Positions 855 to 48,000 of a stretch of 64,000 bases of DNA are shown here, piece by piece. Numbering within the stretch: the first letter of the stretch is position 1; each line of letters starts with the position of its first letter. Below the pieces are notes generated by a model. That model saw only the letters and a program-made list of their open reading frames with translations. It searched no databases and was not told where the DNA came from. Origin of the DNA: Candidatus Omnitrophota bacterium (lineage in GTDB: Bacteria > Omnitrophota > Omnitrophia > Omnitrophales > Aquincolibacteriaceae); the NCBI GenBank assembly GCA_022709525.1, contig JAKLIQ010000006.1, positions 2,708 through 66,707 of the forward strand, written 5' to 3'. Position numbers and translations under genes: made by a program.

Positions 855-2966
855 TTAAGCGGCTTTTTCGGGAAGTTCCTGCGACAGCATCTCGGAAACA
901 AGATTCTCCAGAAGCGCCAGGAATTCCGGGTTTTTGGCGGACTGGTACAGGTTCGGGTTCAAGGCGATGATCCGGTAAAGAACGAGCGAGATGGGCCGTT
1001 CCGGCAGCACCACATACACACCGCTTTTATAACCTTCCTTCATGATCGCGAACGGGAATTTTTTCGCGAATCGCTGGAATTTCGGGGTTTGGTTCATCAG
1101 CGTATCCAGATCCTCGACCTCAAAACGCTCGATCCCCCGGGAAGCCAGAAAGATCTCGGGAACTTCCGCGAGAGGCACATCCTGGACCAGAACGAGAAAA
1201 TCGTTGCTCTTGACGATCCCTTCGATCAAGCCCGGGACTTTTTCATCTTCGAGAAGTCTCTTTAAAATACTGACCTGCGAGACCAGCATGGCTTTGCCGT
1301 GAACGCCTTGGATCCTTTCAAACCAGCCGCGGACGATACGAAGCTGTTCCGCGCCCCCCAGGAGCTTGAATGATGTCTCGTCGAAGGTTGTGGCGGGAAG
1401 CGCCGCGCGGCGCGTGGCGGTCTGTGAAAGGGGGGAATTTCCGGTGAACGCGGCCACGGCTTTGCGGACATCGTTGGTCGCGAGAAGGACTCCATAGCTT
1501 GCTTGGAACCTATCGTCGAACCACTCAAGCGCATTTCGGAGTTCCGAAAGCGTCTGATCTTTCACCCTGTCGAGACCCGGCCTTAACCCTGTAGAGACCG
1601 GGTCTCTGAGGGGTCCGCCCATTCTTTGGGCGTAAAGCTTTTCATTCATGGAGGCGCCACCAAGGTCCGGGGCGACGGTGATATAAGAGATCCCCGACTC
1701 TCGGAATTTCTGGGACAATCCGTCCGTATGAAATCCGCCCGTGACGACCGCGATATTGCCGGCCAAAGCAGGATCGTTCATGATCTTTTCAAAAAAGATA
1801 TCATCGCGTTTTTTGACCGTGTCGTAGAAATCAAGCGACAAGACAAGCTCCTCGGCCAGACCGATCCCCGCCAGCTCGGGCTCAAGCGCGATCTTTTCAT
1901 TCTCGTAGATCTTAAGGTCTTTCGGCATGGCTTTAAGGAGCAGCAACCGTTCCGCCAGGTAGAACCGTTCGGTCTTATCCCATAGGGCCTGTTCCTCGGT
2001 GGTTTTGATGAGCTTTTCAAGGACGCGGCCGGTCAAAATTTCGATCTGGGACATCAGATCTTCGAGAGAAATACGGTCCTGTAACTGGTAAATGCGGTTC
2101 AGTTTTTTGATCTCGGGGTAAAGGAGCATTTTCTCTTCCGGGATCTTGCCGCCGCGGACCAGCTCCTCGAGATTCCAGGAGGAGTTCTTGTATTTCTGCA
2201 TCAGGTCGCGGACTTCGGCCTCAAGCCGCTCTTTCGAGACTGATTTTTCTTCCGTCATGATCTCCTGAAGAAGCGCGATCTGGTCGAGGTCGGAGTAAAT
2301 GGCGCCAATACTTTCCGCAGTTTTTAAAAGCAAAGGAAAAAATTTGCCAAGGTCCGAAGTTTCGCGGAATTCTCCGAAGGCCTTCCCGAAATTCTGAAGT
2401 TCCGGCCCCCAGACCGATCCCTGGGAATTTTTTAACGAAGCGCCGTAATCAAGGAGTTTTTGGCGGATCTCCGGCTCTTTTTGAAGATGGGCGAGGAATA
2501 GCTGGCGGTTCTTTTCATACAAAGCGGCGTCTTCCATCCCGATGAGCATGATCGGTTCGGGCGACATGATCGCGGCATGAACGGGTCCGGAGATTCTATC
2601 GTCCTCCAACAGTGCATTAGCAAGAAGCATTTTCTCGCGCGAAGTTGGGATCGCATGGCTTTTGGGAAGGGAAGTTGAAGACCAGGCGCCTTCAAGCGCG
2701 GCTTTTTCAACGCCAAAGACGGTTCGCAGCCGCTCTAAAAGCGCCGCGATATTCTGCTGCGCGATCATATGCGCGTGAACATCCTGGATCTGGATGATGA
2801 TCCTCGGGCTCCCGCCGCCAAAACGCTCCTGAACCTTTCCGATCCCTTCAGGCGCCGCAAAATCGGCAAGGTCCGGAAGAGCTTCAGCTGTTTGCGCGCC
2901 GGCGACGGGGGAAAAGATCAAGGAAAGGACAAGCGAGGCAAAAAGAGGTTTGAAGATCATTCTCAT
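855..2966 (-). CDS. Stand-alone paralogue (703 aa) of the giant-protein N-terminal domain. Secreted or anchored TraB/GumN/Tiki-like domain protein plus a C-terminal extension.
   Basis: N-terminal signal MRMIFKPLFASLVLSLIFSPVAGAQT. Motifs IIIQIQDVHAH...LEGAW...VVTGGFHTDG...ISYITVAP are collinear with giant 1 (LIHIQEAHAN...LLEGAG...LITGGFHTDG...SSYIGITP) and giant 2 (LIVHLEDAHG...VEGGLG...LITGGFHSEG...VSYVRIAP). GGAGG lies 5 nt upstream of the ATG. Confidence 0.8.
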   Translation of the reverse strand: MRMIFKPLFASLVLSLIFSPVAGAQTAEALPDLADFAAPEGIGKVQERFGGGSPRIIIQIQDVHAHMIAQQNIAALLERLRTVFGVEKAALEGAWSSTSLPKSHAIPTSREKMLLANALLEDDRISGPVHAAIMSPEPIMLIGMEDAALYEKNRQLFLAHLQKEPEIRQKLLDYGASLKNSQGSVWGPELQNFGKAFGEFRETSDLGKFFPLLLKTAESIGAIYSDLDQIALLQEIMTEEKSVSKERLEAEVRDLMQKYKNSSWNLEELVRGGKIPEEKMLLYPEIKKLNRIYQLQDRISLEDLMSQIEILTGRVLEKLIKTTEEQALWDKTERFYLAERLLLLKAMPKDLKIYENEKIALEPELAGIGLAEELVLSLDFYDTVKKRDDIFFEKIMNDPALAGNIAVVTGGFHTDGLSQKFRESGISYITVAPDLGGASMNEKLYAQRMGGPLRDPVSTGLRPGLDRVKDQTLSELRNALEWFDDRFQASYGVLLATNDVRKAVAAFTGNSPLSQTATRRAALPATTFDETSFKLLGGAEQLRIVRGWFERIQGVHGKAMLVSQVSILKRLLEDEKVPGLIEGIVKSNDFLVLVQDVPLAEVPEIFLASRGIERFEVEDLDTLMNQTPKFQRFAKKFPFAIMKEGYKSGVYVVLPERPISLVLYRIIALNPNLYQSAKNPEFLALLENLVSEMLSQELPEKAA

Positions 2967-3221
2967 GGCGTTCCTCCGTTGGCAAGGATATATATAACGC
3001 AGAACCTGTTTAAAATCAACAAGTTATGCCTATTTTTTCATCCAGAAGCTCTATTTTCTTATATAGCAGAAAATAGCAATATTATCTAATAAACCGCTTC
3101 TGGGAAATATATTGAGCATGGGTTGTTAAATACTTTTTCAACCCCTTGAAATTTGAGAAACTTGTGTTACCTTTCCCATGAGTTTTCTCAATTCCAGGTT
3201 CCGAAAGGGCAAGATCAACGC
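2967..3221. promoter_or_regulatory. AT-rich divergent promoter region between the 703-aa paralogue (-) and giant gene 1 (+). Contains the GTGTTACCTTT motif (3164-3174) also found upstream of giant gene 2.
   Basis: About 35% GC against about 55% for the flanks. Small inverted repeat ctattttcttatatagcagaaaatag. Motif is shared with 36021-36031. Confidence 0.4.
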
Positions 3222-6200
3222 ATGGATTGTCTTAAGAATTTAAGGCGGTTTTTGGCGGGTATTGTCGCCTTCACATTCTTCGCGACGAACACTCTCACCC
3301 CAACTCCGAGCGCCTATGCGGCGAACGTAGAGTCTCCGTCCTTTGTTTCTTCTTTTAAGATCCCCGCAGAATTCGGCAAAGTCACCGATATTTTCTTAGG
3401 GACTCGGGACTCGTTCCTAGGGACTCGTAGCACAAAGAACTCAAACGAGTCCCGCGTATTAATTCATATCCAGGAAGCCCACGCCAATTATGACGCCCAG
3501 AAGAATATCCGGAATATCCTTGAGTATTTATCCCAAAATTACGGTATCAAGCTCGTCCTTTTAGAAGGCGCCGGGAACAAACTCCAGCCCGAACTTTTCA
3601 GGTTTTTCCCGCAGGACGCGGAACTTCAGCAGGCGGTGAATGACAAGCTGATGGAGATCGGCGAACTGAACGGCGCGGAAGTGTTTATGATTGAAAATAC
3701 GGGACTCGGGGCTCGACCCTTGGGACTCGATAAAACTAGGAACAAAAACGAGTCCCTAGTCCCTAGTGACGAGTCCCGCTCCGAAAGCGTTGCCGCTTTC
3801 GGTGTTGAGAATACAGCCGCCTATGTCAAAAATCTCGCTAGCTACCGGGAGGTTTTTGAAGGACGCAAGATCGCGGATGATTTTCTCGGAGCTTTCTATA
3901 CCCGATGGCAGAGATCGGCCGACCTTTCCATGAATAAATCCCTGCGCGAATTCCTGGGCCGCGAGACGGCATTCGAAGAGGATCGCGTTCCGCTCCAGGA
4001 TTGGCTGGAATCCTTGAAGAAAACGGCTTCCCGGGAGCTCGAACTGGACCTTGATAATGTTCGCGTGCAAAACGACTGGCCCGTGCTTGTCCGCTACTTT
4101 CGGCTGAAGCAGATCGCCCCGAAGATCAATGCGGCAAAAGCCCGGCAGGAAAAAGAAGTATTTTTACAGGACCTCAAAGCCCGCCGGATCCCTTCGGAAC
4201 TCCTTCAGGAGATCACAAAACTCCTCGAGCACAAAAAAGACGGGGACCTTCCTCCTTACAAAACCCGTTTTGCCTTCGAAAAACTCATGGATCTTCTGCC
4301 GACGGATTATTCGTTCGAACAATACCCCAATTTTAAGCTGCATCTCCAGCAGTTGATCCTTTTAAGCGAGCTCCAGAGCGATCAGCTTCAGGAAGAGATT
4401 GCGAAGCTCACCGAAAAACTCACAGTCCGTCTTACTCAAACTGAAAATGATAAACAACTCGTCGCGGTTTTGCATGATTACCGCCTTGTTAAAAAATTAT
4501 TTCAGCTCGAATTGAATCGTGGTGAATACCAGCAGCTTTTATCCCGCAATGTTTCACCCGCAAACATTATTAAGGGACTCGGGACTAGTTCCTCGGGACT
4601 CGGGAATCCAGGAAAAACGAGGAGCGAGTCCCGAATGACGAGGCTCGAGCTTCTCTACGGGACGGCAATCCGGTTTTACGAGGGAGCGATCGAGCGTGAG
4701 CATTGGATGATGCAAAAAGCGCTCGAGCGGATGCGGGAACGTAAACAGGCCAAGGCGGTCCTGATCACCGGCGGTTTTCACACCGACGGCTTTAGGGAAA
4801 AGATCCTCGCCGGCGGCAGTTCCTATATCGGGATCACCCCGCGCATCGGCGAGATCACCGCTGATTCTCAGAAGAATTATATTCAAACCTTGTTGGGTTT
4901 GAACGGGACTAGCGCCTCGCACCTCGGGACTCGTAAAAACGAGGAACAAAAACAAGTCCCGAGTCCCGAGTCCCGAGTCCCTGTCGCTGTAAGCGACATC
5001 GCTGCCACCCCTCGCTCTGACATCCGGCTCATGGCGGAAACGGGAGCGCTCGATCACTCCTTAAGCCGCATCGAGGCCGCCTCGATCGACATCGTTGCTT
5101 CTACTCGTCCCGAAAACCGCGAAACCTACCAAGCCCAATTAACCCAAGGCATTCAAACCATTAAAGACGAAGTTTTTAGTGGGCCAACTTCTACCGTACG
5201 CGCCGAAATGCGGAGAGCAATCAGGGTCGAGATTCCGGAACAGGTGAATAACGCCTTGAATTTGGAGCAATACCTTCGCAGTCTTTTGGGTAAAGCGGAG
5301 TACGGAACGCAAAATGTAACGCTCGAAGCGATCGCCGCGGGTGAATGGCGCATTGTCCTCGTTACCCAAAAAGGAGAAACGATCCCTACTTCCAATATGG
5401 CCCTCGCAAGTTCGATTCTTTCCGAGAAGGGCTATCATAACGGCATTCGCGATCTTCAAGCTATTGAATTCCATCCTCGCTCCGAAATGCGGGAGCGGAT
5501 CCTGCTTGTCGATGACAGCGAATCGGACCGCGCGCTCTTTCGGGTTATCCTGGAAAGCAAAAAGTATGAAGTGGTTGTTGTTGAAAGCGCCGAAGAAGCT
5601 CTCGAAGAGTACGCAAGAGCCAAAAAAGAAGGGAAGCCCTTCGCTGCCGTTGTTTCTGATTGGAATATGCCGAAAATGAAAGGCGACGAGCTGGCGCGCC
5701 GGATCACGGACGTGCCCTTTATCCTTCAAAGCTCGAACATCCTTGAGGACGGCACCGCGGAGAACCCCGCCGAACAGAAGATCCTGGATGAACTGGCCGC
5801 CTTAAACCCTTTTTTCAGGACCCATTCCAAAAACGAGCTGGGATTTTTGGCCGAGAAGCTGGCGGGACTCATTTTTGCCGCGAAACCCCCCGTTTTAAGC
5901 TTTTTGGAAATGCACAGCGCATTTACCGCGATCGCCAAAGAAGCCGCCGGCAACGATGATCTTGTCAAATTCATCAATGATAAATGGGAGCCCTTTTTGA
6001 CCACGGGCCCACTCACGAAAACAAAAGAGAAACCTTTAAAAACCGGGCAGGACTGGCAGCAATATTTCCTGAAATTGGGCCGCTTGAACCACGACCCCGA
6101 TATCGCCGCCGAAGCCTACAGACGCTTTCAGGCAATGGTGAAAAAAAATACAGGCAAGGAGTTGCCGCCCTTGCGCGAGGGGCCCCGCCAGCGTTCTGAA

Positions 6201-9200
6201 ATACGCACAACGGCAAAAAAAGCTGCTGATGCAAAACGAACCATCAAAAATATCGCGGATTATGTTCGGCCCGAACAAGGACAGAAAAAAGGGATCGGAA
6301 AGATCACGATACCTTATTACAAAGGCGGTGTCGAAATCAGCTATCGATTCGAACGTCTTAAAGAAAAAAAGAAAGAAATTATCGAAGTTTTCAAGAATTT
6401 GATAGCGGCTTTGGAACTCGAAGCTGAGGAGGAGCCGGAAATAGGCAGGCATTTTGAAGAGGGTATGAGCCATCAGGACCTCGTAGGCGTTTTCCGTTAT
6501 GACTTGGAGCAGAACCATATTTTTATGTTGCTTGCTTGGCTCAAAGCGTTGGGATTTCTGGACCTTTCCCCGACCCAGCAGGCGCTTTTGGAAAAAATGA
6601 AAGAAACTAAAAGCGCAGACAAGATCAAGCTCTACCCTAGAATCTTAAATATTGATTTAAAAGTTTTAAAACCCGAAGTTGAAAAATCGAGCGTCACAAG
6701 AGAAGCCGAAGAAGAGGATCTCGAGCCGGACGCAAACGACCTTGAAGGCGAAGACGCGGAAGCGCGCGCAGAAGTCAGGGCCTCTCAACCTGCCGGGAAA
6801 ACCGGTTTCGGCATCTTTTATCGTTTTAAACTTGCCCTGGCCATCGGGATCATCGGACTCTGGTCCGCGATCATGGCGCGGGCCCAGACCGTATTTCCCG
6901 GCAAACCTTACCTCGAGCATTACGCGGGGCTTTCCGGATCAGGGTCGATCGCGCAATATAGCAGCGCTCATTTCAAATGGAATTTCCGCATTTGGAACCC
7001 CGGCTACTCATTAGCCGTTTATAATTTTGGAACAACCGCTCAAGGCCCGCAAAATCTAAGCGGTTACACCAGTTTTAGTTGGGACGTCCGCTCCTACATT
7101 AACAACACCACAGGCCATCAGGGTGTTTTCCGGGTCGAATTCAAAGACACGGACGGCGATATCGCCAGCAAGACCGTTAGCGGCATTTATAGCAACTATC
7201 AGACCGTTACGATCACTTTGGCGGAACTTCTCGCCAGCAATCCTGCCTACAACCCTCAAAACACCAAAGAGATCGTTTGGGTCGCGGACAGCAATGCTTA
7301 TATGCCAGATGACTATGAAGGGTGGGCTGAATTTAAAACGGGCGGGCTTTTCTTCACCACGAATATTTCTCCCAACGCCTCTTATACCCTTTATGACACG
7401 ACCGAGCTTCCCGAAGGGACCGAAGGCGCGGTGGACCCTGTCACGGTCTATCCCGTCGGCGCGTCGGTGACAGCCAGCAATCAGGACCACGGGATCGCGT
7501 TCACTTATAACACGGGCGGCCAGACATGGGCCGGCGCCGGCATGGCGTTCGATGATTTCGGAACAGTACCTGTCGGCACAGGGGATTTGAGCGGTTTTTC
7601 GAACCTTGTTTTTGGCATTAAGGCCACCGGGACCACGCAGCTTAAGATGGAAATCGTGGATAGCGCCGAGAACAAGGAATATGTCTACTTAAACGGCATG
7701 AATGCCGGGTACCAGACATGGGTCATCCCGATGAGCTTTTTTGCCGGCATCGATCTTGAGAACGTCAAAGTCATTTATTTTATCGTCGAGGGCGCAGGCA
7801 AAAGCGGCACCGTCTCTATTAACCACATTCCCGAGACGATTGACATTACTGGCGTCAGACGTCAGCAAAATAATGATGTCGTCACTTTTTCAAGCATTTC
7901 AGGGCTTACCTATCGCGTGGATCAGAGCGCGGCCGGCCTTGTCAGTCCGAATTGGCAGACAGGCGCCACCACAAGAGCTCTCGGCCCCTCCGCGACGATC
8001 ACCAACAGCACCGGGTCTTCTTCTAATACCGTTGTGACACGGGTGATTTATAACCGTTCTGAGGCGAGGGAAGAAAAAACCCCGGCCTATAAGATCAAGT
8101 CGGAAGAAGTAAGCGTTTATGATCCGTCTAGTCCGAAAAGCGAGCCGTATGCCGTCGCCATGGACCTTGTTGAAGAGGTCCGGATATCCGAGACAAGAAC
8201 AGTTTATTTCAAAAAAGCCGCTTTTGAGGAGGCCTATGAAATTTATCTTAAGGGCGTGCCCAACGCTCTCGGCCTTTTGAAAGAAGGCGTCAGGACCCGA
8301 ATAGGCGATCTTCCGTTCCGTTTTATCGCCCGGGAAGGAAAACTGATCATCCTGGCGGAAAAACCCGGCATTGTTGTGATGAAGAAAATCCCGCAAACAG
8401 AAGCCGCGATAGCCAAGAAAACGCCCTTAGCCGCGAAAGCGCCGCTTCGGATCAAAAAATCCGAACTTACCAAGATCCAGGGAGAGGGAAGGAGCCGCTC
8501 CGAAGCGCGGCTTGATATCGAAAAGGAAATGTTCAAAAGTTTTTCGGAGCTTTCTTCCGACCTGCGGGTAAAGCTCAAGACCGAATGGAGCCGTTTCAGG
8601 CGTTTCGGCGGCAACTCACTTGAAAAAGCGCTGCGTGAAGACAATGAGGCGGGCGTTTTAACCCTCCTGGAATATTACTGGGAATTCGTCGGGGAGAAGA
8701 TCGTGCCTCCCGATGTCCTTTCCGGCAAGGTATCGATGGTGGCCCTGTCGCTGACCGGGGCTTGCGTTATGGGGCTCGTGGGTCTGACAGAAATACCGGT
8801 CCACGCCTTATTGATCAACCTTTCGATCTGGAGTTTTATCGCGGCAAGCGGTGTGTTCGCGGTTTCTTTGGCCGGAAGCCTTATTGGCAATCGGATGAAA
8901 CATAGCGAACTGGCCCGCGTCGATCACCTCATCAAATTAATGAGAGAGCTTATGGTCCGCCGGAACCATCTCCCCCTTTCGACTTTGGAGGAAAAAACGC
9001 TTTCGGGCGCATCTTCCGGCGCTCCCGTCGAAGCGGTTTACCGGCCGCCCCGAATGATCCAATTTTCGGAGCCGTTTGTGGAAGGCGAACGTCCCGGTAA
9101 AAGACCGCCTGAAGTGGAACCGCCTGCCCGTGCCGAACTAAGAGGTTTTGGATTCGATGTTCCGGATTGGGCCGTTGGAAGCGCTTCGAACTACCTCAAG

Positions 9201-12200
9201 CTTCAGGGTTTTGAGGAAACGGATCTTCGCGACGCAAAGGTTTTGGTCAAGAAAAGATCTGACGGAATGGTTTACAATGTCACGCTTCCTTCCGAATTTT
9301 CGCAGCCCTTTGACGCTTTAGACACGCTTCTTAAAGAGATCGAGATATTAGAAGTTTCCCAGATCAGCCACATCGAAGTTGAAAGCCGCGCGTACATCCT
9401 GAAACACTTACTTGCCATAGCCCGGGGGTATGACCAGGAAGCCGCCCAAAAGGCCGGTGCGTTGCTCCGAAGACTCAATAAGCCCCATTCAGCCGCCGCC
9501 GCGATGGAAGAAGCCAAAAAACTTATTTCATCGTCTCGATCCGAAGCAAGAGCCGCCGGAACCGAAGAGAATCCCGCTTTTGAAAAGATCAGAAAGGCCG
9601 TCGTGGAGCTTGCTTTCGAATTGGCCCAAAAGCCGTGGTACAAGGTCCCCAAGGCCGGAGAAGATTTTGACGCGATGGTCAGGATCTTGTCGGAGCACAA
9701 CCAGAAAAGGATCCTCGGGATCGTCGCCTCAAGGATCGAACAATTCGCCGGCGAGATCAGAAGGTCCATGAAAGACGGTTCCACCTGGAAAATGCTCCGA
9801 AGCCGCTATGAGACGGCGCTTGACGCGTCGCGGAAGGTTTCCGGGGCCCCGTCCTCTCTTGAGGAACTTATCACGGAAATGCCTTTTGTTTTTGTGGACC
9901 GTATCGTCCAATTCGGGAAGGCACAAAGGCCTCTCGAAGAAAGATTGGCGCAGGCCGTAGAAGCGCTTGCTGAGATCCAGCGGGGTTCTTACGGATTGGA
10001 GAACGCAAAGACGGCGCATGAGCTCGAAACCAGACTCAGCCGCCGCGGCAGCGAGAGATTTATGGATGTCCTGGAAAGCGCGGAAGATTTCTCTCGCGCC
10101 GTCTTATCCCAGCGCTCCGAAGTCCGCGACAACACCAATACCATTGACGGCTATACGGTCGTCAGCCGCCAACTTGAAGCCGGCCTTGACCGCAGCATTC
10201 TTGAAGCTCTTAACAAAAAACTAAGCCGCCGGTTCCCTAATCTGGGGCATATGATCCGTCGTTATGTGGGGCTTGTCGCCGAAACAACGCTGACGGGCGG
10301 GTTGGGCGCGTTGATGCATGACCTTTTTCCGGCATGGGGGAAGAATTTTGGCTCCCAGGAAAAACGCGAAAAGGACCTTGTGGCGATCAATGTTGTTTAT
10401 GAAAGCATCAAAGGGCAGCGGTATGCGAAGTATTTGCCGGCGGAGATCCAGGAGGGAAGAAAAACGCTCGGGGATTACCTGCGCGGCGTTCTCAAATCCG
10501 ATAAAAGTCTCAGTCTTTCTTTTGAGCTCGAAATAGGGGACGATTTTAGAAGGAAGGCCGCCGACGAAGAGCGTTTTGCCGCCTCGTATGGCAGCGCCGA
10601 ATACCGTGTTTTCGCCCATAAAGCCAAACAGATCATCGGACAAAAGATCTATGTGGAGGTCTATCCGACCGAAACGCATTTTGGCCGTGTTCCCAACTAC
10701 TATGTGGACGCCTATTTTATTGACAACGAAGGCGAAAAAATCAGCATTTTTGACGAGGTCTATCCCGACGCGCCGCATGGGCACCCTAATTTGTGGCGCG
10801 ATGTCCATATGGCCGTTTACAGTTTGGCAAGCCAGCATCTCCTGGAAAAGCTTCGCAGGAAAGGCGTTGTTAAGAGCAAATTCCTTTTTGTGGATAACGA
10901 AGTTTTTGTCAGCACGCCCACGCCCCTTTTCCCCGACGCGATCCATCATCACGTCAACCACACGGTTTTCCGTCCCGGGCTTTACATGCCGGATGAAGCT
11001 TCCTATGAAATGCTCGGATTCCCGGAGGTGCAGCGCAAATACATCGTCAAGGACGGGAAGATCAACATCATTGATGCCGTCGGGATCTCTTCCCATCTGA
11101 TCACCGGGGTCGCCTTGTATGAACACACACCGGTCCTGGCCAAAGACATCATGGCGGCCCATGTCCATAAACTCGAAAGTTACAACAAAGAAGGCGTCCG
11201 CAACACCAACGGGGTTTATCTCGAACAGTGGCAATCGCCCCTTTTGACGGATCTGATCAGCCAGTACAAAGCAAAGATCGGCTTGGAGCCGGAGGATTCC
11301 AACCAGGCGTTCTATCGAGAGATCCAGAAAACCACCCACGCGAGGATCCTGGAAGAATTCGAAGAGAAAGCGGAATTCATCAAGGCGGTCCATGCGGCCG
11401 AACTCCTGCTTTGGCTTAAGGAAGACCAGAATTATTCTCTTTGGTTCGATGAGATGCTCGAAGCGTTTCAGGGCCAGCGCGGCGTTGCGGGCGGGGAATG
11501 GCATCTTGATATCGCTGACGCGGGGAAATTCGTCGAAGGGTTCCGGCAAGCCGTTCAAGATGCCGTCATAGACCCGGCGGGGTGGCAGCACTTCAAGGCG
11601 GGCCCCATGTTCTTCCTGAAAGAACTCCTCTTGCGGGAGCCCATCATTTCCAATGTCCGTCGACAGGTTTCTTATAAAGGGCCGGATAAATGGCTTGAGA
11701 TCTTAAGAAAACTGCAGCGCGATCCTCACGCCTTGGCTCAGTTCAAAGAAAATGCTCCCCGCGTTATTCTGGGCGGACGCGAATTTGGCGAAGAGGCGCA
11801 CGGCATGTTTTTAGAGATCCAAGGCCTCATCAGAGCCCTTGGGTTGCAAGACCGTTTCGCGACCGTCGACGACTACAATAACTACATTGCCCCGATCATT
11901 TTCCAGGGCGTTTCCGGCTCCGTGATGCTTTCCGACGAATTCCTGGAAGCTTCCGCGACCAGCATGATGAAGGCGATTGCGAACGGGGCGGCTCTGATCG
12001 GGGTTTGGGGCGGAGCGGATCCCGAGATCTTCACGATCGTTGATCATAAAACAAAACGCGAGCTGGATGTTTTTAAAGACCATGTCACCCATGACGAACT
12101 CGTTAAAAATCTAAGAACCGGCGCATGGAAGATCACGAACGGTTTTCTGATCGAATATAGCTCTCAAGAGAACAGCACGCAGCCGGGAGGGGGAAGGCGT

Positions 12201-15200
12201 CCGTCCGCCGATTCGCTTCTTCGCGCTCTTTTAGACCTGAACGAGCAATACCAGGATCCGGAAGCGAGGCGCCGGCTTCAATTCAATACGCTCGCATCTT
12301 CTTTAAAGGTCGATATGGCCGAAGGGCAAGCGCTGGCCCACAAAATGTTGTGGGAAGAGGCGATCAGGATCCTTCAGGAAGAGGACAAGGTTTTTGAAGG
12401 GCTGAAGATCTCCCAAGAGGACTCGGAGGCCCTTCTTTCCCGCTCGATCCGCGGCCAAGGTATTGTGGATTTTATCGAGGAATTCCGTTATCTGCGCATG
12501 AAGGGCCGTGAAAGTTACGACCGGGTCGCTTTTTACGCGACACAGGGGCTTCAAGGGAGCATTTTTGGTTTTCTCAATGAATTTTTTAAAGATTTTGACC
12601 ACACGCTCGAACCTGTCATCCGCAAGATCCATGAACTTTCCGTTCGCGCCGAAACCACGACCAACCTTCAGGAGAAAGTCATCGCCAATCTGGAAGCTCT
12701 GGAGATCGTGGAGCGGCTCACGGTGGAAGTTTCCGTCGCTCTTTTTGAGCATTATGTGCTTTCCGGGGATAAGGCGCTCGAACCGTATCTTGCCAAGCCG
12801 ATCATTCGCGAGAATCTGGCCCGCTATTTCGATGAACACGCAGTCGCGCTTGAATCGATCGCTAAAAAGATCCCGGGTTATACCGTTTCAATAGGCGATA
12901 AAAATTACCTCGTGGCACTAAATCTCGGCGAATTCAGTTACGTTGGCCCTTCGGGAGAAAAAGCGCGGGGCGATTTTTACGGCGAAGAAGGCATTAAGGC
13001 CCTTATTGGGGAAGAAGCGGCCAAAAACGATGCGAGCATTTTCCAGCTTGTGGATGCGATCACAGATCAGCGTTACGGCACTTATCCCGTCTGGAAGATG
13101 ATGGAAAGATTTCCGATCGGCGTGCCTTATCCCGGGGTTCAAGTTCTTCGCGTCGAAGATACAGGCCAGCAGTCGGAAGAAAAAGAAACAAGGCTTCGCA
13201 ACGACATTCTGCATTATCTCGAAGCCCTGGCCAACAATCGCCTGGTGAGCGATGGAAAACCGATCACTCAGTTGCTGCTCCAGAAGATCCAGACGGTTGT
13301 GGAGGATCCGGCCAAGCTTTCCAAAATGCTCAAGGTCGTGGCTAACCTCTCTCGCGAAGAGGCCATTGTCAAGTTTACCCGGGGCGGCGTTCCCGCAGTC
13401 ATGGCTTTTATCGCTATTTTGTCGCCGGAACTGCTTGAAGATGTCAAACATTGGAATCCCGATGTTTATAAAAAACTAAATGCGGTGATCCAAGATCCCG
13501 CGTTTGAAAAGAACTTCAAAGAAGGGAAGATCTGGTTCCATAAGGTGGACCGCGACAGCGCCCTTGTCATTTCAAGGAACCTGCCCGGACAGGATATCCC
13601 GCCCGTGATCGTCCCGATCCATTTCCCGGACAGGCCTTACCGCGCCGATGACGGAAAAGCCTGGTTCAGGTTGCTTGATGTGCGGAATTTAGGCGTTGAG
13701 AACTCTGACAAGATCGAATATCAAGTTTATGACGCCATCCTTCAAAAGGCTTATGAGCCGAAAACCGGCGCCAAGCTTCATAGCGAAAAATGGCATTTAG
13801 GCGTTCCCGTTGAGGGCGCGGGGTACCGGTTTCAAATCCTACAGGTCCAACTCGTCAGCGCCGCCCGTTCGGAAACCCGCGGAGTAAGCAATGAAGAAAC
13901 CGAGGAATGGACAAAACATATCAATGACTGGATTAAGCATACCCCTGAAAAAGTACTTATTTTGGGGCTGGGGTTTGTGGGTCTTACAAAGCTTGTACTC
14001 GGAGTGACGGATCATGGATGGGATGCTGTCGGCCTGGAAATCGTTCCCTCCAAAGCGAACATGATCTCGCAAGGCGGAATGCCTTTTTTTGCGGACATGA
14101 TGGAGCCGGAGTATGATAAGGAAGGGAAAATGAAAGATCCAGGCCTGCTTCAAACCGCCATCGAAAGCGGAAGATTTCATGTTACCTCAAGCTACGACGA
14201 AGCTCTGAAAGACCCCGAGAGAGACATTATTTTTCTCGCCGTTCAAACCCCTCAAAGCAACGATGGACGGGCGGATACATTTTATCTTGAATACGCCGTG
14301 CGAGAAGTCGCGCGAAGGACTTTCAGTTATCCCAGAATCATTGTAGGGAAAAGTACGGCACCTCCCAAAACTACCGTGGAAAAACTCAGAATCTCTGTAG
14401 AGGAAGCTCGCGCAGAGAGAATGCAGGAAGTTTTCATCAAACAGCTTCATGACGCATCAATGCAGACAGAAAGATCCGGGGACGAGGCAATCTTCAAATT
14501 AGTACAAGGCTTTCTTTCGGAACAGCTTATAAAACAAAAAATGGTTTTAGATTCCGAAAAATCTTACCTGGAAGCAGTAAGCCGGGAAGACTGGGCGGGC
14601 GACGTCAGACGAACAGAAAAAAAATTAAGAACAATTCATAGGGATAATCCTGAAAATATTAAGACGACCCTTGATTTACTTCGCGAGACAATCGGAGAGG
14701 GGAAATTTAATTCTCTTTTCAACAGCAAGGAAATTTTAGACCAAACAATCCCCATTGAATTTGCTTGGGAACCGGAATTTTTACGTGAAGGAAAAGAGGT
14801 CGTCGACGATCGTGGAGAAGCCGGGCGCATAGTGATCGGAGCCGAAAACCTTAAGGCGGCGCAAAAGGTCAAAGCCCTCTACGAACATTATAACCCCAAT
14901 CTGAATCCCCCTCGTCAGCAAGTTCCTATTGTTATCACAGATCTTGCAAGCGCTCAAACCGTCAAGTATGCCGCTAATACTTACCGCGCGATAAAAATAT
15001 CTTTCATTAATTATATCGGCTGGCTTTGTCAGGTGATGGGTTACGATGTGAATAAGATAGCAGATATTATAGGAATAGAAGGCAATGTTCGAAGGGCGTT
15101 TTTAAATGCAAGTCTTGGTTTTGGCGGATCGTGTTTTCCTAAAGATTTGGCGGCTTTTGTTAAATTATGTAGGGAGCTTGGCCTTTTACCCAATTTGGTA

Positions 15201-18200
15201 TTAGACGCTCTTGCGGTCAATGAAGTTCAGATAAGGAGGTTCGTGAATTTAATTGTCAAACAATTAGACGGCGTCAAAGATAAAACCATTGTTGTGCTTG
15301 GCGGTGCTTTTAAACCCGAAACGAGCGATACGCGAGATTCCAGAGCCGTTCGCGTCATGCAGGATCTGTTGCAAAAAGGAGCCAAGATCAGGGTTGTAGA
15401 TCCTAAAGCTATACCGGAGCTTCAAAGAATGTTTAAGGCGTATCCCCCCGGAGTCATTGAATACTTCGAGAATTTAGATGATTTTGAAAACGTCTTTAAA
15501 GAAGCAGACGGCATTGTACTCGCTACAGAGTGGGAAATATTTAGAGATAAAAGAATAGATCCTAAAAATGGAAAAATGGATTTTGAAAAAATAGCGGCAC
15601 TTTTTACTCATAGACAGTCACTTCCTCATATTTTTGACGGCCGAAACTTATTTGAAAGAAAAGCAGTTAAAGAATTTGGCTTTTCGTATATTGATATTGG
15701 ACGCGCCGAATTACTTAAATCAGACAAAGAACATGTCGCATTTGCAAAACAAGTCAAAGAAGTTTTTCTGGCAGGGAGAGTTTCTCATATCAATGATGTC
15801 GCAGAACTTGCAGAGAAAACCGGAGCCAACGCCTTGGATATCCGAAAAGGATTTGGGTTAGATCCCGTCGTCGGAGAGAGCTATTTAGATCCCGGCATTG
15901 GTTGGGGCGGTCATGACCTTGTGAATTCGCTCCGAGCTCTTGAGAAGCAATCTTGGGATAATATTAAAGATTTGTTGGATGAATATCGCGAAGCCAGGAA
16001 AGATTTTATGAAGCAGTTTGGTTTTAGCGAAAATGAGTTTCCTGATGACGAAAACAGAGTTCCTTTCGTAACAGCTAGCCGCGAAATCAACAAAAAGCAG
16101 ATCGGACTTTATTTAAATAAGGTCAAAACTATTTTAGGCCCTGATCTTAACGGAAAGGACATAACGCTCATCGGTTTGGCCTATAAGATCGGCACTTATT
16201 CTCTCGAAGAATCGCCTTCTATTCATCTCATCGAGGCTCTTTTGCAAGAAGGGGCGATCGTTCATATTGCGGATGAAAATCTTGCTGCTACCGCCAATAC
16301 GAAGGATTATTTTAGCAGATTTCAACACGGAAAATTCGTAGAAAATATTCGCCTTTATAACAATCTTTCCGACGCAATTGTCAATGGGAAGGATTTGCAA
16401 GTTTTAGTGAATCTTTCAGAACGCTACTCTGAAGAATCAGAATGGGCAAAACTCGGATTAAAGAAAGTTTTAGACGCCAGACATTTTTTTAATGATCCGG
16501 TTTCTCTTAAAAAGACGGGTATCAGTTATTTTGCTTTAGGGATACCCGAGGTGAGTTTAGCTGAGGAAGAAGTGTTGAGGCAAAGGGAAATGGAAAGTCG
16601 CGCTGTTCTGAGCCAAATGCAAAAAGCGATTGTCTTTTATAAAGACAAAGTTATGATCGAAGAAAGGGAAGATGAAACATATAAAGTTACCGCATTTGTA
16701 AAAATAGAGGATTCCTGGCTACAAAGAGCCGATTTTTATATTTTTTATGGACCTTATCCCCATGAGCGTCAAACTTTTGATTGGTATGCCCAAGAAGTTT
16801 TGGGCGGGAACATTCGAAAGATAGAACAAACACCCGATTTTTATCAGATCAAACTTATTATCTCACCTAAGAACAATTTTCCAGCTGTTGAGGGGAGGTA
16901 CGGCCTTACCCTTTTTGCCGTTCCTAAAACCATGGCAGAAACGGATCCGGGTTTTCGAAAAGTTCGGTTATGGGCCGCTAAGCCTTTTGACGACACTCCC
17001 TTTATCGTACGTCGTACCGAGCGTTCGGAGCTGCGCAGTCCCGTGGAGGATTTCAGGGCGGAGATCGAAGCGGGCAAAGTCACATTCATCATGTTCAAAG
17101 AAGACGCAGTGAGGGGCCGGAACGAAGAGGGATTGATGGTTCCTCAAATGCTCGAGCGGCTTAGAGACCACGGGTTTGAATTGGTGTATCTTGGCGCTCA
17201 GACCGAATTTACTCAGGAACAGGCCCGGGAGTTTTACGCGGTGCATCAGGGCAAGTGGTTTTATGAACCGTTGGTCCAATACATTACTTCAGGGCCCGCT
17301 ATCCCCGCGTTGGTACGGTATCATGGAGAAGGCCCGGCGGTTCAGGCGATCCGCAGCATTCTGCCGTCGTTGCGCCAGGAGTTCGGGATCGAGAAGGGGG
17401 ATCCGGAGCTCAAAAAAGTTGAACGCAACAAGATCCACGCTTCCGATTCACCCGAGAACGTGTTCTATGAAGGCGCGATCGCTTTCCGCTCCGAGCTCCG
17501 GACGCTGGATGTCGAGGCGCTCGTTGCAACGATCGCCGAACCGGTCTCCGCGATCGATCTTTTCAAGAAAATAGGGCAAAATTCCGCCTTAAGGCAGATC
17601 CGCGCTCTGAAAGAACAAATCATCAAGGCATCTTCCGAGTTCAATCAATCCAAACGCCAGGCCGAAGAAGTCCAGGAGATCGGCGATCTGGGGCTCAAGA
17701 TCGCAAAGCTTCTTTCCCAGGAAAATTATTCTCCCGAAAAGACCCAAGGGATCCTTCAAAAGGCGGTTTCAGAACTTTCTGAGGCGTTGGGGCTTATTCT
17801 TAGATTGCTGACTTACGCGGCAACGGCTAACACCAAAAGTATCCAGCCGTCGGTTTCCGTTGAAGCTCAAAAAATGGTCAAGAAGATCGAAGCGGCGATG
17901 GAGCGGCCTGCGCGCGAAAAGAAAGCTACGGAAACGGCGTCTCCCCGTTCCGAACTGCGGAACGTCGCGGCGCTGATCGCGACAGGAGTTGAGGTCAGGA
18001 CGCCCGAGGAATTCTTCCGGCGCAATCTCGAACAGGGCGGCGGCCATGAACAGGGCGTCCGGAGCGTTACGGAAAAGGTCATGGATGGGATCTATTCGCT
18101 TCTGGCTCATAGCTTTGATGCCGCAAAAGTCATTTCCTCCGCTTTCTTTCCGGAAGCTTATGCTCAAGAGATGTTAACCATGGCTTCCAAGCCCGAAATG

Positions 18201-19774: not shown

Positions 19775-19780
19775 TCTAAT

Positions 19781-19859
19781 GGGACTAGGGACTCGGGACT
19801 GGGGACTCGCTTTGGTTCCTCGTTCATTCGAGTCCCGAGGTGCGAGTCCCGAGCAACGA
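19781..19859. repeat. GGGACTCG palindromic element in the intergenic gap before 19867.
   Basis: gggactagggactcgggactggggactcgctttggttcctcgttcattcgagtcccgaggtgcgagtcccgagcaacgag. Confidence 0.85.
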
Positions 19860-19866
19860 GGGTATT

Positions 19867-20866: not shown

Positions 20867-20875
20867 ATCAACAAC

Positions 20876-36060: not shown

Positions 36061-39000
36061 ATGTTAAGAAAAGATGGGAAATCAAAAGTGAAGGGGCTAA
36101 GCGCGGTTTCTAAAATGCCAGACCATAACAAGACGACATTCTCTCTTCCGGTAAGGGCTATCGCCATGTTCGTTCTTTTTGCCTTTACGAGCACGACCAT
36201 CGCCTGGTCTGCGCCTTCAGTCGGGACTGAGGTGAAAGAGCTGAGTCGCGAGATAAAGATCAACCAGCTTGCAGAACGAATAACAGTTCCTTCCGAAATC
36301 GGCATCATCAAAGAAATACACACCGCTTCTCCCGCCTCAGCGCTCAGTCCTCAGTTCTCAGGGCTTATTGTTCACCTCGAAGACGCGCACGGGAGCGTGG
36401 AAGCCCAACTCCACCAGGAAGCAATCCTTCGCCACCTTCGAAAAGAGTACGGCCTGGATACGATCTTCGTTGAAGGCGGGCTCGGCGATCTCCGGCCGGA
36501 GCTTTTGAGTTTTCTAGAAGATGAGAAACGGAATAGCGAACTCATCAACAAACTGACCGAAAAAGGATTGGTCGGAGGCGTTGAGCGATTTTTGGCGACG
36601 AAGTCGCCAGACCAGAGACTACAGACCGCAGACCACAGCCTAAAGACAAAAGATTTTAAAGCAATTGCTCCGGTCTCAAGTCTTAAGTCTTCAGTCCGCG
36701 CTTTCGGGGTAGAAAGCGCAGAGCTTTACCGCCGCGAACTTGAACTTTTCCGGGAAGTCTATGCGCACAAAGCCGAAAGCGATCAATTCCTGAACGGGAT
36801 CCGCCGCCAACTTTTAGCGCAAAGCGCTTCCGGTTTTAACAAAGAACTCAAAGCATTCTTCAAGGAATGGCTCTTTCAAGAAGAGGTCCAGAAAGACATT
36901 CTTTCCCATCTTTCCTTCCTTCAGAAATATGCCGTCGAAACACTGAATCTTGATCTGACGGATGCCCGCGAACAGTACGATTGGCCGCAGCTTGTCAGAT
37001 TTTTCAAGTTGAAAAACCTGGAGGGACTCGTTCCTAGGGACTCGGAACTTGCCAGGGATGAAATGCAAAAATTGGCACAATGGCTGAATGATCAAAAGCT
37101 GGATGATCTCAATAAAGAATTGGAATTATTTTTTAACGAGCCCCGAGGAGCGAGCTTCGAGTCCCGCGGCGAAACTTTCAGGACGAGAATGGAAAAATTC
37201 TATGCGAAAGTTTCGCCACGGGGTTTCCGGTTTGAGGACTATCCCGCTCTTACCAAACGGATCGGTTCGATCATCCTAAGCCAGGAGATCCAGACCGGCG
37301 AGCTCCTTCAGGAAATGGAGCGGCTCAACGCGAAGATCCTCGAAGCGCTCGCTAAAACCCAGGAAGAGAAGCGAGGCATTGCGCAATATCAGGAGTATTT
37401 ACTGCTTAAGAAATTGTTTTCGCTTGAATTGACGAGAGAGGAATTTAAACAAATGGGACTCGCTCCTCGCGACTCGCTCCTCGAAAAAACAAGGGGCCAA
37501 GCCGAGTCCCGAATCCCTAGTTCCGAGCCCCCCGCGAGGGAGGTTTATTCCCGCGCGCTTGAGTTTTATGAAATCGCCCAACAGCGCGAAGAAGCTATCT
37601 TCAAGAATATGCTCGCCAAGATGAAAAGCATCAAACAACCGAACGCCGTCCTGATCACCGGCGGTTTCCACTCCGAGGGGCTTTCGGAATTCCTCAAAGC
37701 AAAAGGCGTTTCTTATGTCCGTATCGCGCCCCGCATTTCCGGGAAGATGGACGACGCAAATTATCTCCGGATCATGACTTTGGGACAGTGCGCACCGGCC
37801 GCTCGGTCTTCTGCCCGCTTCGCAACACTCACCAATGATCCTAAAAGTCTCGATGCTGCCACAGTTGAGTTTATTCGCGCGGAGCTTCGTACTTCTATAC
37901 GAGAAATCGCGGACGATGTGATCCCTTCTAATGAGTGGATTATCTCCAAAGACCTCTTGGGACGGCAGTCCGAAGCTATGGTTCCTCGGGACTCGGGACT
38001 CGGGACTGGTTTTAAAAACGAGTCCCTAGGCACAAGCGACAAGTCCCGCGCCGAAGGACGCTCCGAGGCCCGGGAAGAAGAAAAAGATCCGTCCGCTTTG
38101 GAAAAGGAATTTGAAAGATTGTTTCCTTCAAATAAAGAATTAATGCTGGCTCTGTTCGGGGAAATCGTTCTTCAAAATAAGAATATTGAAAAGTTTTTTT
38201 ATCAGCTCATGGCCATTTATGGTCTTGCATCCTGGGATGGCGAACATTATCAATCGACCACCAAAAGGCCCTTGTCTCCGGAGCAGGCTCTTTATTTTGT
38301 TTCTTTGTTGCGCTTGGAGGGAGGAGGATTTTTAGGGGATGAATATGAATTTATTTATAAAACGAAAAAAGGAAAAAGGACCGTCGAAAAAACCGTCGCC
38401 TACACCGATCTCGATCCGGAATACCTGGAATGGGCCGTAAAATACAAGATTCCCATAGAATATTTTCCCCTCACCTATAGCCTCTTTATCGATAAGAAAG
38501 AAGGCCTTCCTCAAACGGGCACCACAAAAATAGCGATCCGAGCCGGGAATCAATTGGGCGAGGAATTGTTTCGCGAGTTTATCGAAAAGCGCGGGCCGCG
38601 CGTTCGCGAACCTCTTGTTAACGCAAAAGGCGTCGATCCCAAAAATCTTCGATGGTTGAAAATTCATCCCGACAGCCATCTAAGCAAGATCGCCGATTCC
38701 CATGGGATCGATCCCAAGGATTTGAAGTTGGGGTTCGAGAAAGAAGGGGATCAACATTCCGTTTACCTTTTTACGGCAAACGAAACTTTTAACGCCGAAG
38801 CGAGTCGGCGGTTTGATGCTTCTCATGTCGCTTCAATTCCGATCGGTTTTGTTTCGATCCGCTATGACGGAAATACCCCTTTTATTTATGGTTATCAGCC
38901 GAGATTCTTTATTCCTTCTCATGGAAAAGAAGACGCGAACGATGTCGTCGGAAGAACTATCAAGGGCGGTATGCTCTTTCTCGAAGCGTTTTTGGAAAAA

Positions 39001-45000: not shown

Positions 45001-48000
45001 GCCCGGCGCGCCATTGAAAAGATCCAACGGCAAGGCCGCGTTTCTCGCTTTGAAGAGGGTTGGGTACTCAGTCTCGTGACGCCTTGGGACAGAAGCATTT
45101 ATTTTGGAACGCAGCAACGCGTGGAAGCGACCCGTCGGCTTATTCGGGACCTTCAAAAACGCAACCCCTACACGGAATTCCGTTCGGAGACGCGTATCAG
45201 TCTCCGCACTGAGAGAAACGAAGTTCCCGTACGTGCCGAGATGCGGGCGTCGGTTGCCGAAGAGATCGAGGAACGGGTTAGCAGCATGTATGACAAAGGC
45301 GATCTTGAGGTCGGTTATTGGTGGTTCGATTTCGAAGAATATGACGCCCGGCGCAAAGATCCCGACTATCCCACCCTCCCTACAGATCGTATCTCGAAGA
45401 TCCGTGAAGCTATGGAAGAATTCCGGGATCTTAGGACGGATAAAAATCAGATGATCTATGCGCGGAATATTCATTGGATCCTGGGGGTTCCGTCCGTCGG
45501 GATCATGTTGATTCATCTGCTTCTCCTTGCGCAGGGCGATGGGGAGGTCTACTGGAAGACATCCTTCGGTCTTTTAGGGGCAGTGGCTCTCTTGAATTAT
45601 TTCTTCAGCCGGGTGGTCGACTACACGACCAATGAACATCCTTACGAGAAGATCCTTGATATCTTGGAATCCATCGACAGGCAAGGACCGGACGAATCGC
45701 AGGGACCTTCCGTTCGCTCGGAAGCGCGGGATCGCGTATCCCAGCTTGCGCAAAATTTTGTGATCCAAAACCCGAACGGGATCCATCTGCGGCCCGCGGC
45801 CGGCATTGTCAAAATAGCGCAGCAGATCTTTGCGGCGCTCGGCATTACCGTATGGCTGCAAAAAAGTGGCCAGGGAGAACGGGTCCCGGCCCAAAGCGAA
45901 ACAAAAGTCGCCCTCCTTGGGTTGAGGCAGGGTGATTCAGTAACGGTCATTTTGGATTCGCGAGAAGGCGAATCCTATCCCCGCCGGTTCTTTGAAAAGA
46001 TCATGAAGCTTTGGAAGAAACTTTTTAACGACCCCGAAGCGCTCAAGGCCGGTCTTTCCGGGGAGAAAGGCCTCCCGTATTTTAGCGCCATCACTTCCCT
46101 GGTTCCGGAAAAAGACGCATCCCGTCGTTCCGAGATACGGACAAAACATCCGCCGCAGAAACGTGTTATGAAGTTCCGGGACGTCGCCTATTACTACAAC
46201 AATTTTGACAAGGCCGCCGAGATATTCAAAAAGATCCTCAAGGCAAGCGAAAAGGGCGTGATCAACGCCGGAGACCGCATCTGGCGCGAAACGCTTCCCG
46301 CGATCAAAAGTTATTACGATGCCTACAACAAAAGAGGGGAGATCCCTGAAGATTTCAGGGTCATGGCTATGCTTGTCCGCGCCATCATGATCTTTCAAAT
46401 GCTTATGGGCAAGAAAACTTCGATTCCCCAAACATCCAAGCCCGCGAAAAGAAGCGCCGTTTCAGAAAACCATTTTAAAGACCGGTACCGTTTCTGGTCT
46501 GACGCGGCACTATTCAATAAAATCGCCGAAGTCCTCAAGGCCCTGAAAAACCCGGACATGGCCGCCAAGATCCGGGATCCGAAACTGGGACTTCCCCAAT
46601 TCGACACGCCTCAGATGACGCGCCTCAATGAACTGGCCGCTATGGATCGATTCGTTCATCCCGAAAAACTCGAATTGGAGGATATTTTTACCCGCTTTGA
46701 TCGCCGTCATGCTGCGGCCCGAGGAGAGACCTCTTTTCGTTCGGAAACGAGGGAGCCGCTTCTTCTGGATGGTAATGTCAAACTGACCGCGATCCGGGAA
46801 AAACTCTCTGACATCAGCGAACTTCACCTCGACCGGGATATCCGCAAGGCCGTCGCCATGCAGATCCGCCGTGTCATTTTGGCGAAACAGGACCGGCTGG
46901 GATGGGAGGACCTTCAAAAGATCGAAGGGCTGGAAGATCTGAACCTTTCTGTCTTGAAGGAAAATTTCAAATTGCCCGTCAAAACTCCCGTAAGATCCCT
47001 GAAATACAGCCGCCGCTTCGCATGGGGCTTGGCCGGCCTGCTCGCCGCATCGGCACTTTCGATCGCCGGCTGGTTCAAGTGGGAATCTTCTAGAGCAAGA
47101 CAGTCTTTGACAGCAACATTCCAGAAGGCGGGAGACGTCAAAAGCGAGATTTATCAAGATTTGGAAAAAGTTTATTTTGAAAAAATGCCTCTCTATAACG
47201 TTTTTCCAGCTGCGCTTTATAAAGATCCGCTTTATTTCCCGAATCAGGAATGGGGCAATTATCACCTGACTGTTATTGGCGATATTCACACACATCCGGA
47301 CACCCCCGCGCTGATTTTGGATGCCGCCCGTTTGATTGCTGAAGATCCCCAGCAGTGGGTTCTTTTAGTGGAAGGGTATGAGGAGTGGAAAAAGAACAGA
47401 AATGAGAATGCCGTGGATCTGGTACTTCTGGATGAACTTATCAAGAGAACAAAAGCTCCTGTTCTGGATTTTGTTCCATTGCCTAGCGATGCTGATGTTC
47501 TCGAAGGGATCCAGGAACGTCTCGAATTTTCAAAAGAAGAGATTTTAAATATTTCATGTTTTCTTAAACTTGGTTTTTATTTTACCGTGGCTGATGATTC
47601 CGGTCGCCCTCAGGAGTGGGCCTTGGAAAAAACTCTTAACCTTATGTCATCCCGAACAGGCCTACCCAAAGAATATTTTTTAAACCAGCTCACGGCATTG
47701 GCGCAGTCCCTAAAGGATTTAGATGATGTTGGTTTAAAAAAAGTCTGGGAGAAAATAGTTCGCTTTCAGCTTATAGAAATTGAAGCGCGCAACACAGTGG
47801 GTCAAAAACGTGTTCGGGAATTTTTATCAAAATACCCAAACCGTAAGAATATTTTTGTTATTACCGGATCCTTACATCTCCCCATCTTTGATATTCGCTT
47901 ACCTCCCGAGCATCAACCAATGACATTGCCCTATGATTTTTTTACCGAATCTCTGTCGCGTTATTACAGCGTCTTAGAACTCAATGCATCTTCTTTCCGC

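Follow-up and report, generated by a model that had tools for sequence, protein, structure and literature searches.

A putative exported hydrolase related to Tiki, TraB, ChaN and erythromycin esterases heads the giant proteins of Omnitrophota

The window analysed here, a stretch of 64,000 nucleotides from a Candidatus Omnitrophota bacterium, encodes two giant proteins, g1 and g2, that begin with the same domain, which raises the question of what this head domain does and whether it could be the enzyme that cuts the giants into pieces. Both resemble the Omnitrophota giant proteins described previously (West-Roberts et al., 10.1101/2023.11.21.568195; 2026 preprint, 10.64898/2026.06.07.730766) in carrying many unrelated enzyme domains in one ORF. 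For such giants, C39 and S8 peptidase domains were proposed as possible processing enzymes, with the cleavage points given as unknown (10.1101/2023.11.21.568195), and a class of 'multi-enzyme metabolic clusters' has since been defined in a preprint that mentions neither Tiki/TraB nor cleavage (10.64898/2026.06.07.730766). A Tiki/TraB-like head is mentioned in neither of the two (10.1101/2023.11.21.568195 and 10.64898/2026.06.07.730766), and our literature search found no paper joining Omnitrophota with Tiki, TraB or GumN.

The head, about 500 aa long and N-terminal, is common to three proteins of the window:

3153-18698, plus strand: g1, giant ORF of 5,181 aa
36049-56841, plus strand: g2, giant ORF of 6,930 aa
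855-2966, minus strand: 703-aa ORF, divergent from g1

BLASTP aligned the g1 and g2 heads over 616 aa (E=1e-62, 29% identity), and the 703-aa protein with the g1 head in two collinear segments (E=1e-7 and 2e-5), confirming the original prediction of three paralogous copies at these loci. From M23 onwards, g2 is identical to a protein (P0023) on contig DAOOSW010000001.1 of assembly GCA_035389965.1. The motifs that had been quoted for the three copies are all present, with small deviations. The first His motif reads IHIQEAH..AQ in g1, VHLEDAH..AQ in g2 and IQIQDVH..AQ in the 703-aa protein, where Q replaces the first H; the acidic motif reads LLEGAG, FVEGGL and ALEGAW, respectively, so that g2 has VEG for LEG; and the late motif [LV][IV]TGGFH[TS][DE]G...SY[IV]x[IV][AT]P is found in all three heads. 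The parts of the g1 head are as follows:

3222..3320, plus strand: probable true start M24 and Sec-type signal peptide (MDCLKNLRRFLAGIVAFTFFATNTLTPTPSAYA); A57 follows an AxA site
3450..3863, plus strand: N-terminal half of the TIKI-like alpha/beta core (beta1, beta2, beta3)
3474-3482, plus strand: E108 and H110, in beta1-IHIQEAH
3564-3566, plus strand: E138, in beta2-LLEGA
3801-3809, plus strand: G217 and E219, in beta3-GVE..Y
3864..4613, plus strand: all-helical insertion of about 250 aa splitting the TIKI-like core, as modelled by AF2
4614..4922, plus strand: C-terminal half of the core, from the AF2 model and the alignment of relatives
4695-4697, plus strand: R515, in the long helix with FY..A..R[ED]
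4779-4781, plus strand: H543, in beta4-VLITGGFH
5013..5027, plus strand: RSDIR, a variant form of R[SA]ExR and the first junction-type motif behind the head
5199-5213, plus strand: second junction, RAEMR

M24, taken as the g1 start, is kept in 76% of relatives, and the core ends with beta5-SYIGITP and a last helix carrying Y576. The corresponding features of g2, for which the public record likewise has the start at 36115, and of the 703-aa paralogue are:

36115..37824, plus strand: g2 head, signal peptide and TIKI-like domain (BLASTP, alignment)
36115-36210, plus strand: g2 signal peptide
36382-36390, plus strand: g2 D112 and H114
36472-36474, plus strand: g2 E142
36712-36714, plus strand: g2 E222
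37585-37587, plus strand: g2 R513
37669-37671, plus strand: g2 H541
37876-37890, plus strand: g2 first junction, RAELR
1602..2966, minus strand: 703-aa paralogue, signal peptide and compact head (D62, H64, E92, E145, R387, H413)
2895-2966, minus strand: signal peptide of the 703-aa paralogue (MRMIFKPLFASLVLSLIFSPVAGA)
855-1601, minus strand: C-terminal region of the 703-aa paralogue (residues ~456 to 703), unrelated to the head

The head of the 703-aa paralogue has no palindromic-element inserts and no junction motif.

When 1.84 billion cluster representatives were searched exhaustively with a profile, 9,732 of them matched the head at E<=1e-3 (6,699 at E<=1e-30), and the 10 relatives found by a word-indexed homologue search are therefore a misleadingly low count. 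In the profile search the matched domain always started near residue 40, in host proteins of 500-7,400 aa. Scanning one genome per species gave at least 433 head loci, often with several copies per MAG, and all named records carrying the head belong to Omnitrophota (Candidatus Omnitrophota or Omnitrophica). Since about 400,000 aa of giants scanned with a head HMM contained no internal copy, the domain is strictly N-terminal, a head in the literal sense, and it also occurs alone, without a polyprotein (p703, P0008 and P0009). No model in Pfam or NCBIfam covers it; the head is a new Omnitrophota-specific family, outside every existing Pfam family.

We modelled g1 residues 61-586 with AlphaFold2 from a 10-sequence alignment (pLDDT 82, pTM 0.76). 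The modelled head has the alpha/beta core of the superfamily, a central parallel beta-sheet between helices, in the order beta1 (102-108), helix, beta2 (134-137), two helices, beta3 (214-217), helix and, in the second half, a long helix (488-529), beta4 (534-540), helix, beta5 (557-563), helix. Between the halves lie the insertion helices (model residues 178-427, g1 238-487), mostly with pLDDT above 85 and with L288, Q306, P310, R314, E333, E406 and E415 kept across the family. The head is probably a hydrolase core of the Rossmann-like alpha/beta type, interrupted by some 250 aa of inserted helices. The fold matches of the model are given below with rank and score:

Rank 1: 2RAD, Bcr135, erythromycin-esterase family, 10.7
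Rank 2: 5T09, HopBA1, 9.9
Rank 3: 2QGM, Bcr136, 9.4
Rank 4: 8BQS_DQ, TraB family protein, 8.9
Rank 5: 6XCQ, EreC, 8.7
Rank 7: 2G5G, ChaN, 8.4
Rank 9: 5W6L, RRSP, 7.7

A Foldseek search of the head against the PDB gave nothing significant, its matches being mostly coiled-coil proteins aligned to the helical insertion. On the modelled structure, the assignment of the head to the superfamily is well supported.

Sequence profiles speak much more softly. PF01963 matched none of the three heads, nor any of 30 insertion-deleted heads at E<=10 (gathering threshold 26.8 bits; YbaP, the positive control, scored 150.8 bits), and of the two GxxH motifs of that family the head has the second, as GGFH, while its first is [QE][DE]AH without Gly. 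Against 91 aligned YbaP/TraB sequences, the head, full or core-only, reached E 0.1-0.3 with a probability <1% in hhalign, which is a weak test because that alignment is shallow (Neff 2.2). PF04187 ('Tiki superfamily, ChaN') scored 7.3 bits with full-length g1 and 16.2 bits with the insertion deleted, below its gathering threshold of 27.7 bits; it matched 12 of the 30 insertion-deleted heads, all sub-threshold, with a best E of 2.4e-4. Matches of the same heads to PF05139 (1/30), DUF5694 (8/30) and DUF5682 (7/30) were likewise below gathering scores. Scanned singly against Pfam and NCBIfam, the head sequences returned noise at E>=5 plus one ChaN hint, and PDB sequence-profile searches with full and insertion-deleted head alignments returned nothing related. 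The TraB/GumN/Tiki likeness proposed for the heads is partly supported: it holds for fold and active-site pattern, but no head matched PF01963, the family named for the profile check, and the first GxxH is absent. Homology is supported by the modelled structure together with the active-site pattern, and by sequence profiles it is only hinted; taking both together, we consider it very likely that the head is homologous to the TIKI/TraB/ChaN/erythromycin-esterase superfamily.

Active TIKI enzymes use a 2His/2Glu motif, in RRSP E3900-x-H3902, E3930 and H4030; RRSP also requires R4001, 29 residues before H4030, and the catalytic pair of Bcr135 is H85 and E113 (PMC6254334). We aligned with MAFFT 150 relatives, one per 50%-identity cluster, and ten residues are kept in every sequence (H110, E138, G139, G217, E219, R515, G540, G541, H543 and Y576), which is far above chance for relatives at most 50% identical to one another. 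A further eight are kept in at least 98% (P71, G174, Y224, F508, Y509, F542, P563 and E415). The model places [D/E]108-x-H110, E138 and H543 at the ends of beta1, beta2 and beta4, respectively. Of the heads, 61% have D/E at position 108 and the others T/N/S; E219, after beta3, is an extra invariant Glu, and R515 stands 28 residues before H543 in 140 of the 150 relatives. Both the 2His/2Glu motif and the Arg of the pre-His helix are present, and the invariant residues, as aligned, map onto the 2His/2Glu + Arg catalytic set of the superfamily. Judging from this residue set, the head is probably an active hydrolase. By analogy with the Ere enzymes and RRSP, the His-Glu pair would activate water for the hydrolysis of an ester or peptide bond, and help in binding the substrate would come from the Arg. 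Not all members of the superfamily depend on a metal: RRSP and EreB do without one (PMC6254334).

The head differs from each of its better-known relatives. Only 1 of 30 heads weakly matched the erythromycin esterase family (EreA/B/C, Bcr135 and Bcr136; 2RAD, 3B55, 2QGM, 6XCQ; PF05139), and the helical insertion of the head is larger than that of the Ere enzymes and unrelated to it in sequence. While the Ere enzymes act as macrolide esterases in the cytoplasm, the head carries a signal peptide and fronts giant modular proteins. ChaN (2G5G; Cofac_haem_bdg, PF04187), at about 250 aa, lacks a large insertion and is known for binding haem, not as an enzyme. In TraB/PrgY/GumN and Tiki (PF01963; 8BQS chain DQ; E. 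coli YbaP) the first motif is GxxH, in contrast to [QE][DE]AH in the head. Tiki, PrgY/TraB and ChaN act outside the cytoplasm, as we propose for the head. RRSP (DUF5 of the MARTX toxins, 5W6L) is a cargo effector and cleaves host Ras, not the toxin, the processing of MARTX being the work of a separate cysteine protease domain; moreover, RRSP is internal and without a signal peptide, whereas the head is always N-terminal.

A fourth and more canonical copy had been claimed inside g2, in a module with the following parts:

47017..47997, plus strand: fourth-copy module (g2 residues ~3657-3984), a TM helix followed by an alpha/beta domain
47017-47076, plus strand: TM helix
47275-47301, plus strand: IGDIHTHPD
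47365-47388, plus strand: LVEGYEEW
47857-47883, plus strand: VITGSLHLP

The quoted strings do exist, and GDIH, VEG, ARN (EARN) and GSLH follow one another in the correct order and spacing, with both GxxH motifs present. However, the head HMM did not detect the segment and a word-indexed search found no homologues for it; it is therefore not a sequence-level paralogue of the heads. Aligned by hhalign with the head core and YbaP, its motifs line up at E 0.008-0.02 and probability 2-5%, and its single-sequence AF2 model is weak (pLDDT 61). The sole PF01963 match in the area (15.5 bits, E=0.016) was rejected as support, since it maps outside the module, to nt 48007-48171, in the next module past an RSEIR junction, and vanishes with trimmed queries. 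The HTHP of the fourth copy gives a faint JAB/JAMM-like match. We regard the segment as a possible TIKI-like domain, weakly supported.

The N-terminus bears on where the head would work. A hydrophobic 15-mer starts near residue 9 in 130 of 154 heads, preceded by about 3 K/R and about 0.2 D/E, and the c-region of the signal reads PxPxAxA, the signal peptide being called from these textbook features and not by a dedicated predictor. The 703-aa paralogue also has a Sec-type signal. A Tat signal, considered for g1 because of its RRFLAG, was rejected, as the RR is not kept in relatives (KR, KQ, HR, QK). Features of this kind tip the balance slightly towards an exported location.

The giants are punctuated by a recurrent motif at their junctions. 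For R[SA]ExR, where chance would give 0.1-0.2 occurrences, we counted 14 in g1 and 22-23 in g2, and strict RSExR was observed 538 times in 152 relatives, against 9 expected. Of 143 relatives, 111 have a junction motif no further than 200 aa behind GGFH (median distance 111 aa), and the alignment columns of the first junction hold R/E/R in 72-81% of relatives. Some lineages carry another junction, [AG]xSLG, at equivalent places, including directly after the head; the R-class and SLG-class motifs are chemically unlike. At 6.1% of junctions, compared with 2.3% of random positions (2.7x), a hydrophobic segment starts no more than 40 residues further on, complete signal peptides and a lipobox among them; this enrichment of signal peptides and TM segments speaks for new N-termini arising at junctions. 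The Glu of the motif uses codons near background (GAA:GAG 23:13) and the last Arg uses all six codons, so that selection appears to act mainly on the protein; selection at the RNA level was rejected, only the first two codons being biased (CGY TCS/GCS) and the others at background. The modules that follow the heads are of cytoplasmic type (response-regulator receiver, glycogen phosphorylase, UDP-glucose dehydrogenase, NDK, HPr, GNAT, DEAD helicase). Because junctions precede signal peptides and flank cytoplasmic-type enzymes, a cut there must be made on the cytoplasmic side. From these patterns, processing of the giants at junctions is plausible. As candidates for the protease, we rejected the conserved C-terminal tail, which has no Pfam or PDB similarity, and the M24 peptidase and gamma-glutamyltranspeptidase among the neighbouring genes, which look like housekeeping genes and which nothing ties to the giants.

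Could the head itself be that protease? Tiki and RRSP are site-specific endopeptidases within the TIKI superfamily (PMC6254334), and by analogy the head might be a leader endopeptidase that cuts the giants at R[SA]ExR or AxSLG, its own C-terminal junction first, in the manner of viral leader proteases or of the cysteine protease domain of MARTX. Its strictly N-terminal position, with a junction soon after it in most relatives, would suit such a role, as would the great excess of R[SA]ExR and RSExR in the giants, the signal peptides and TM segments enriched directly behind junctions, and the published statement that it is not known where Omnitrophota giants are cleaved (10.1101/2023.11.21.568195). 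If this were true, dozens of independent enzymes, together with lipoproteins and secreted proteins, would be freed by the leader protease from a single ORF, and bacteria would have an equivalent of the polyprotein processing of viruses. However, the head bears a classical Sec signal, yet the junctions would have to be cut on the cytoplasmic side. A folded 500-aa domain is not exportable through Sec. A protease adapted to either motif might be expected to differ between classes, but no head column differs in conservation between 68 R-class (R[SAT]ExR) and 16 SLG-class (AxSLG) giants; no head residue tracks the junction-motif class, the columns with the highest mutual information being variable in both. 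Heads without any polyprotein also speak against this role. Because of the Sec signal, the cytoplasmic-type modules, the position of the junctions and the absence of a class-tracking column, we hold it unlikely that the head is a leader protease which cuts the giants into pieces. Under such a scheme the stand-alone 703-aa paralogue could act in trans.

The head might, on the other hand, bind a ligand or serve as a scaffold without catalysis, like haem-binding ChaN or the C2 domain of PMT, and its best Pfam likeness is indeed the haem-binding ChaN family, position 108 is not always acidic, and the large conserved helical insertion could serve as an interaction platform. But the exact His/Glu/Arg/His set is invariant throughout the 150 relatives, a pattern typical of catalysis, whereas PMT, the known non-catalytic member, keeps the TIKI fold in its C2 domain and has lost the catalytic motif (PMC6254334); a non-catalytic head is accordingly most improbable. 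That the head is unrelated to TIKI altogether, with a generic three-layer alpha/beta fold and His/Glu motifs acquired by convergence, we consider very unlikely. We prefer an exported Tiki-like hydrolase to a leader protease.

As an exported hydrolase, the head would be the first product released and would act in the periplasm or on the cell surface rather than in the cytoplasm. It is the first module, has a Sec signal and ends at the first junction, and for these reasons it is most likely released first and extracytoplasmic. The signal peptide may in addition bring the translating giant mRNA to the membrane. Overall, there is a good chance that the head is a new Tiki/TraB/ChaN/erythromycin-esterase family, a putative exported hydrolase and the first released module of the giants. 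This reading starts from the observed paralogy, fold similarity, residue invariance, strictly N-terminal position and taxonomic range, from which catalysis, export, release and the substrate are inferred.

The giant genes of Omnitrophota are a current puzzle, and published work gives as unknown whether and where their products are cleaved (10.1101/2023.11.21.568195). The Tiki superfamily would gain a large family that is unannotated in Pfam (about 10,000 clusters at 50% identity) and has an unusual split architecture. For the giants, the head module as read from sequence combines a putative intact Tiki/Ere-fold hydrolase with a signal peptide and a recurrent junction motif as its boundary, and this would provide a first functional handle on the module that heads thousands of Omnitrophota giant proteins.

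The two giant ORFs, g1 (3153-18698, plus strand) and g2 (36049-56841, plus strand), share with the 703-aa paralogue (855-2966, minus strand) an N-terminal TIKI-like domain of about 500 aa, hereafter the head. The TTG starts assigned mechanically to both giants (3153-3221 and 36049-36114) are probably too early: conservation across the family, together with the gene call in the public record, points to M24 in g1 (3222) and M23 in g2 (36115), each directly before a signal peptide. Module boundaries in both giants are marked by the junction motif R[SA]ExR, which g1 contains 14 times and g2 22-23 times where 0.1-0.2 would be expected; its first two codons are skewed to CGY TCS/GCS, the Glu and last Arg codons being at background usage. 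At least 28 head-bearing giants, 1,164 to 7,123 aa in length, end in a conserved C-terminal module (the tail), and their architecture is therefore head, variable cargo, tail. The tail, about 245 aa long, is preceded by the junction motif and closes with an invariant ...xSA-COOH end; a search for similarity to it in Pfam and the PDB found none. The C-terminal ~250 aa of the 703-aa paralogue (855-1601, minus strand) lack the junction motif, and no family was detectable for them.

Junctions and tails in the two giants (plus strand)
5199-5213, 5478-5492: example R[SA]ExR sites, g1
39235-39249, 47998-48012: example R[SA]ExR sites, g2
17961-18695: tail, g1
56299-56838: tail, g2
6765-6860: junction with the signal peptide after it, g1 (RAEVR, then ...FGIFYRFKLALAIGIIGLWSAIMARAQ)

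The original prediction placed a fourth, more canonical TIKI-like copy inside g2 (47240-47900). A weak PF01963 (TraB) match was rejected as support for this possible TIKI-like module (47017-47997), as its coordinates (48007-48171) fall outside it, in the module that follows the RSEIR junction (the ILRHRNNRLMEW region), and the match itself is probably spurious. The copy's IGDIHTHPD (47275-47301) could alternatively be read as a JAMM-like HxHP motif, given a faint Prok-JAB match (E about 0.1, 16 residues), which is unlikely to be meaningful.

The head-coding regions of g1 and g2 also carry, in frame, a palindromic element of ~60-95 nt that occurs in intergenic sites as well and has the form (GGGACTCG)n-loop-(CGAGTCCC)n.

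Copies of the palindromic element
3386-3453, 3688-3785, 4561-4654, 4903-4989: within g1
37003-37173, 37453-37539, 37985-38055: within g2
246-340, 770-820, 19157-19320, 19768-19862, 20458-20555, 20857-20959, 22393-22490: intergenic

Translation of the in-ORF copies, for which stable hairpins are predicted (z -3 to -4), yields the GLGTRDS.../...ESRVPSPES loops of the giants' heads, and their positions are those of the low-pLDDT loops in the AlphaFold2 model of the g1 head. Inserts resembling the element occur at matching head sites in two relatives (P0001 and P0006); the 703-aa paralogue is without them. These in-ORF copies are reminiscent of the Rickettsia palindromic elements, which also insert in frame.

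In a second class of head-bearing giants (relatives P0054, P0070, P0077, P0079, P0110, P0145 and others; loci L048 and L073), R[SA]ExR is wholly absent and the punctuation, including that directly after the head, is [AG]xSLG (e.g. QAASLG, GASLG). One MAG, USST_metabat.84, has two members of this class and SLG is the junction in each, so junction class looks lineage-specific.

Whole signal peptides begin directly after junction motifs, in g1 and in relatives P0035, P0039 and P0113, among them one with a lipoprotein lipobox (SMAGC, P0039), and hydrophobic segments are enriched 2.7-fold within 40 residues downstream of junctions. These sequence features suggest that new N-termini arise at the junctions.
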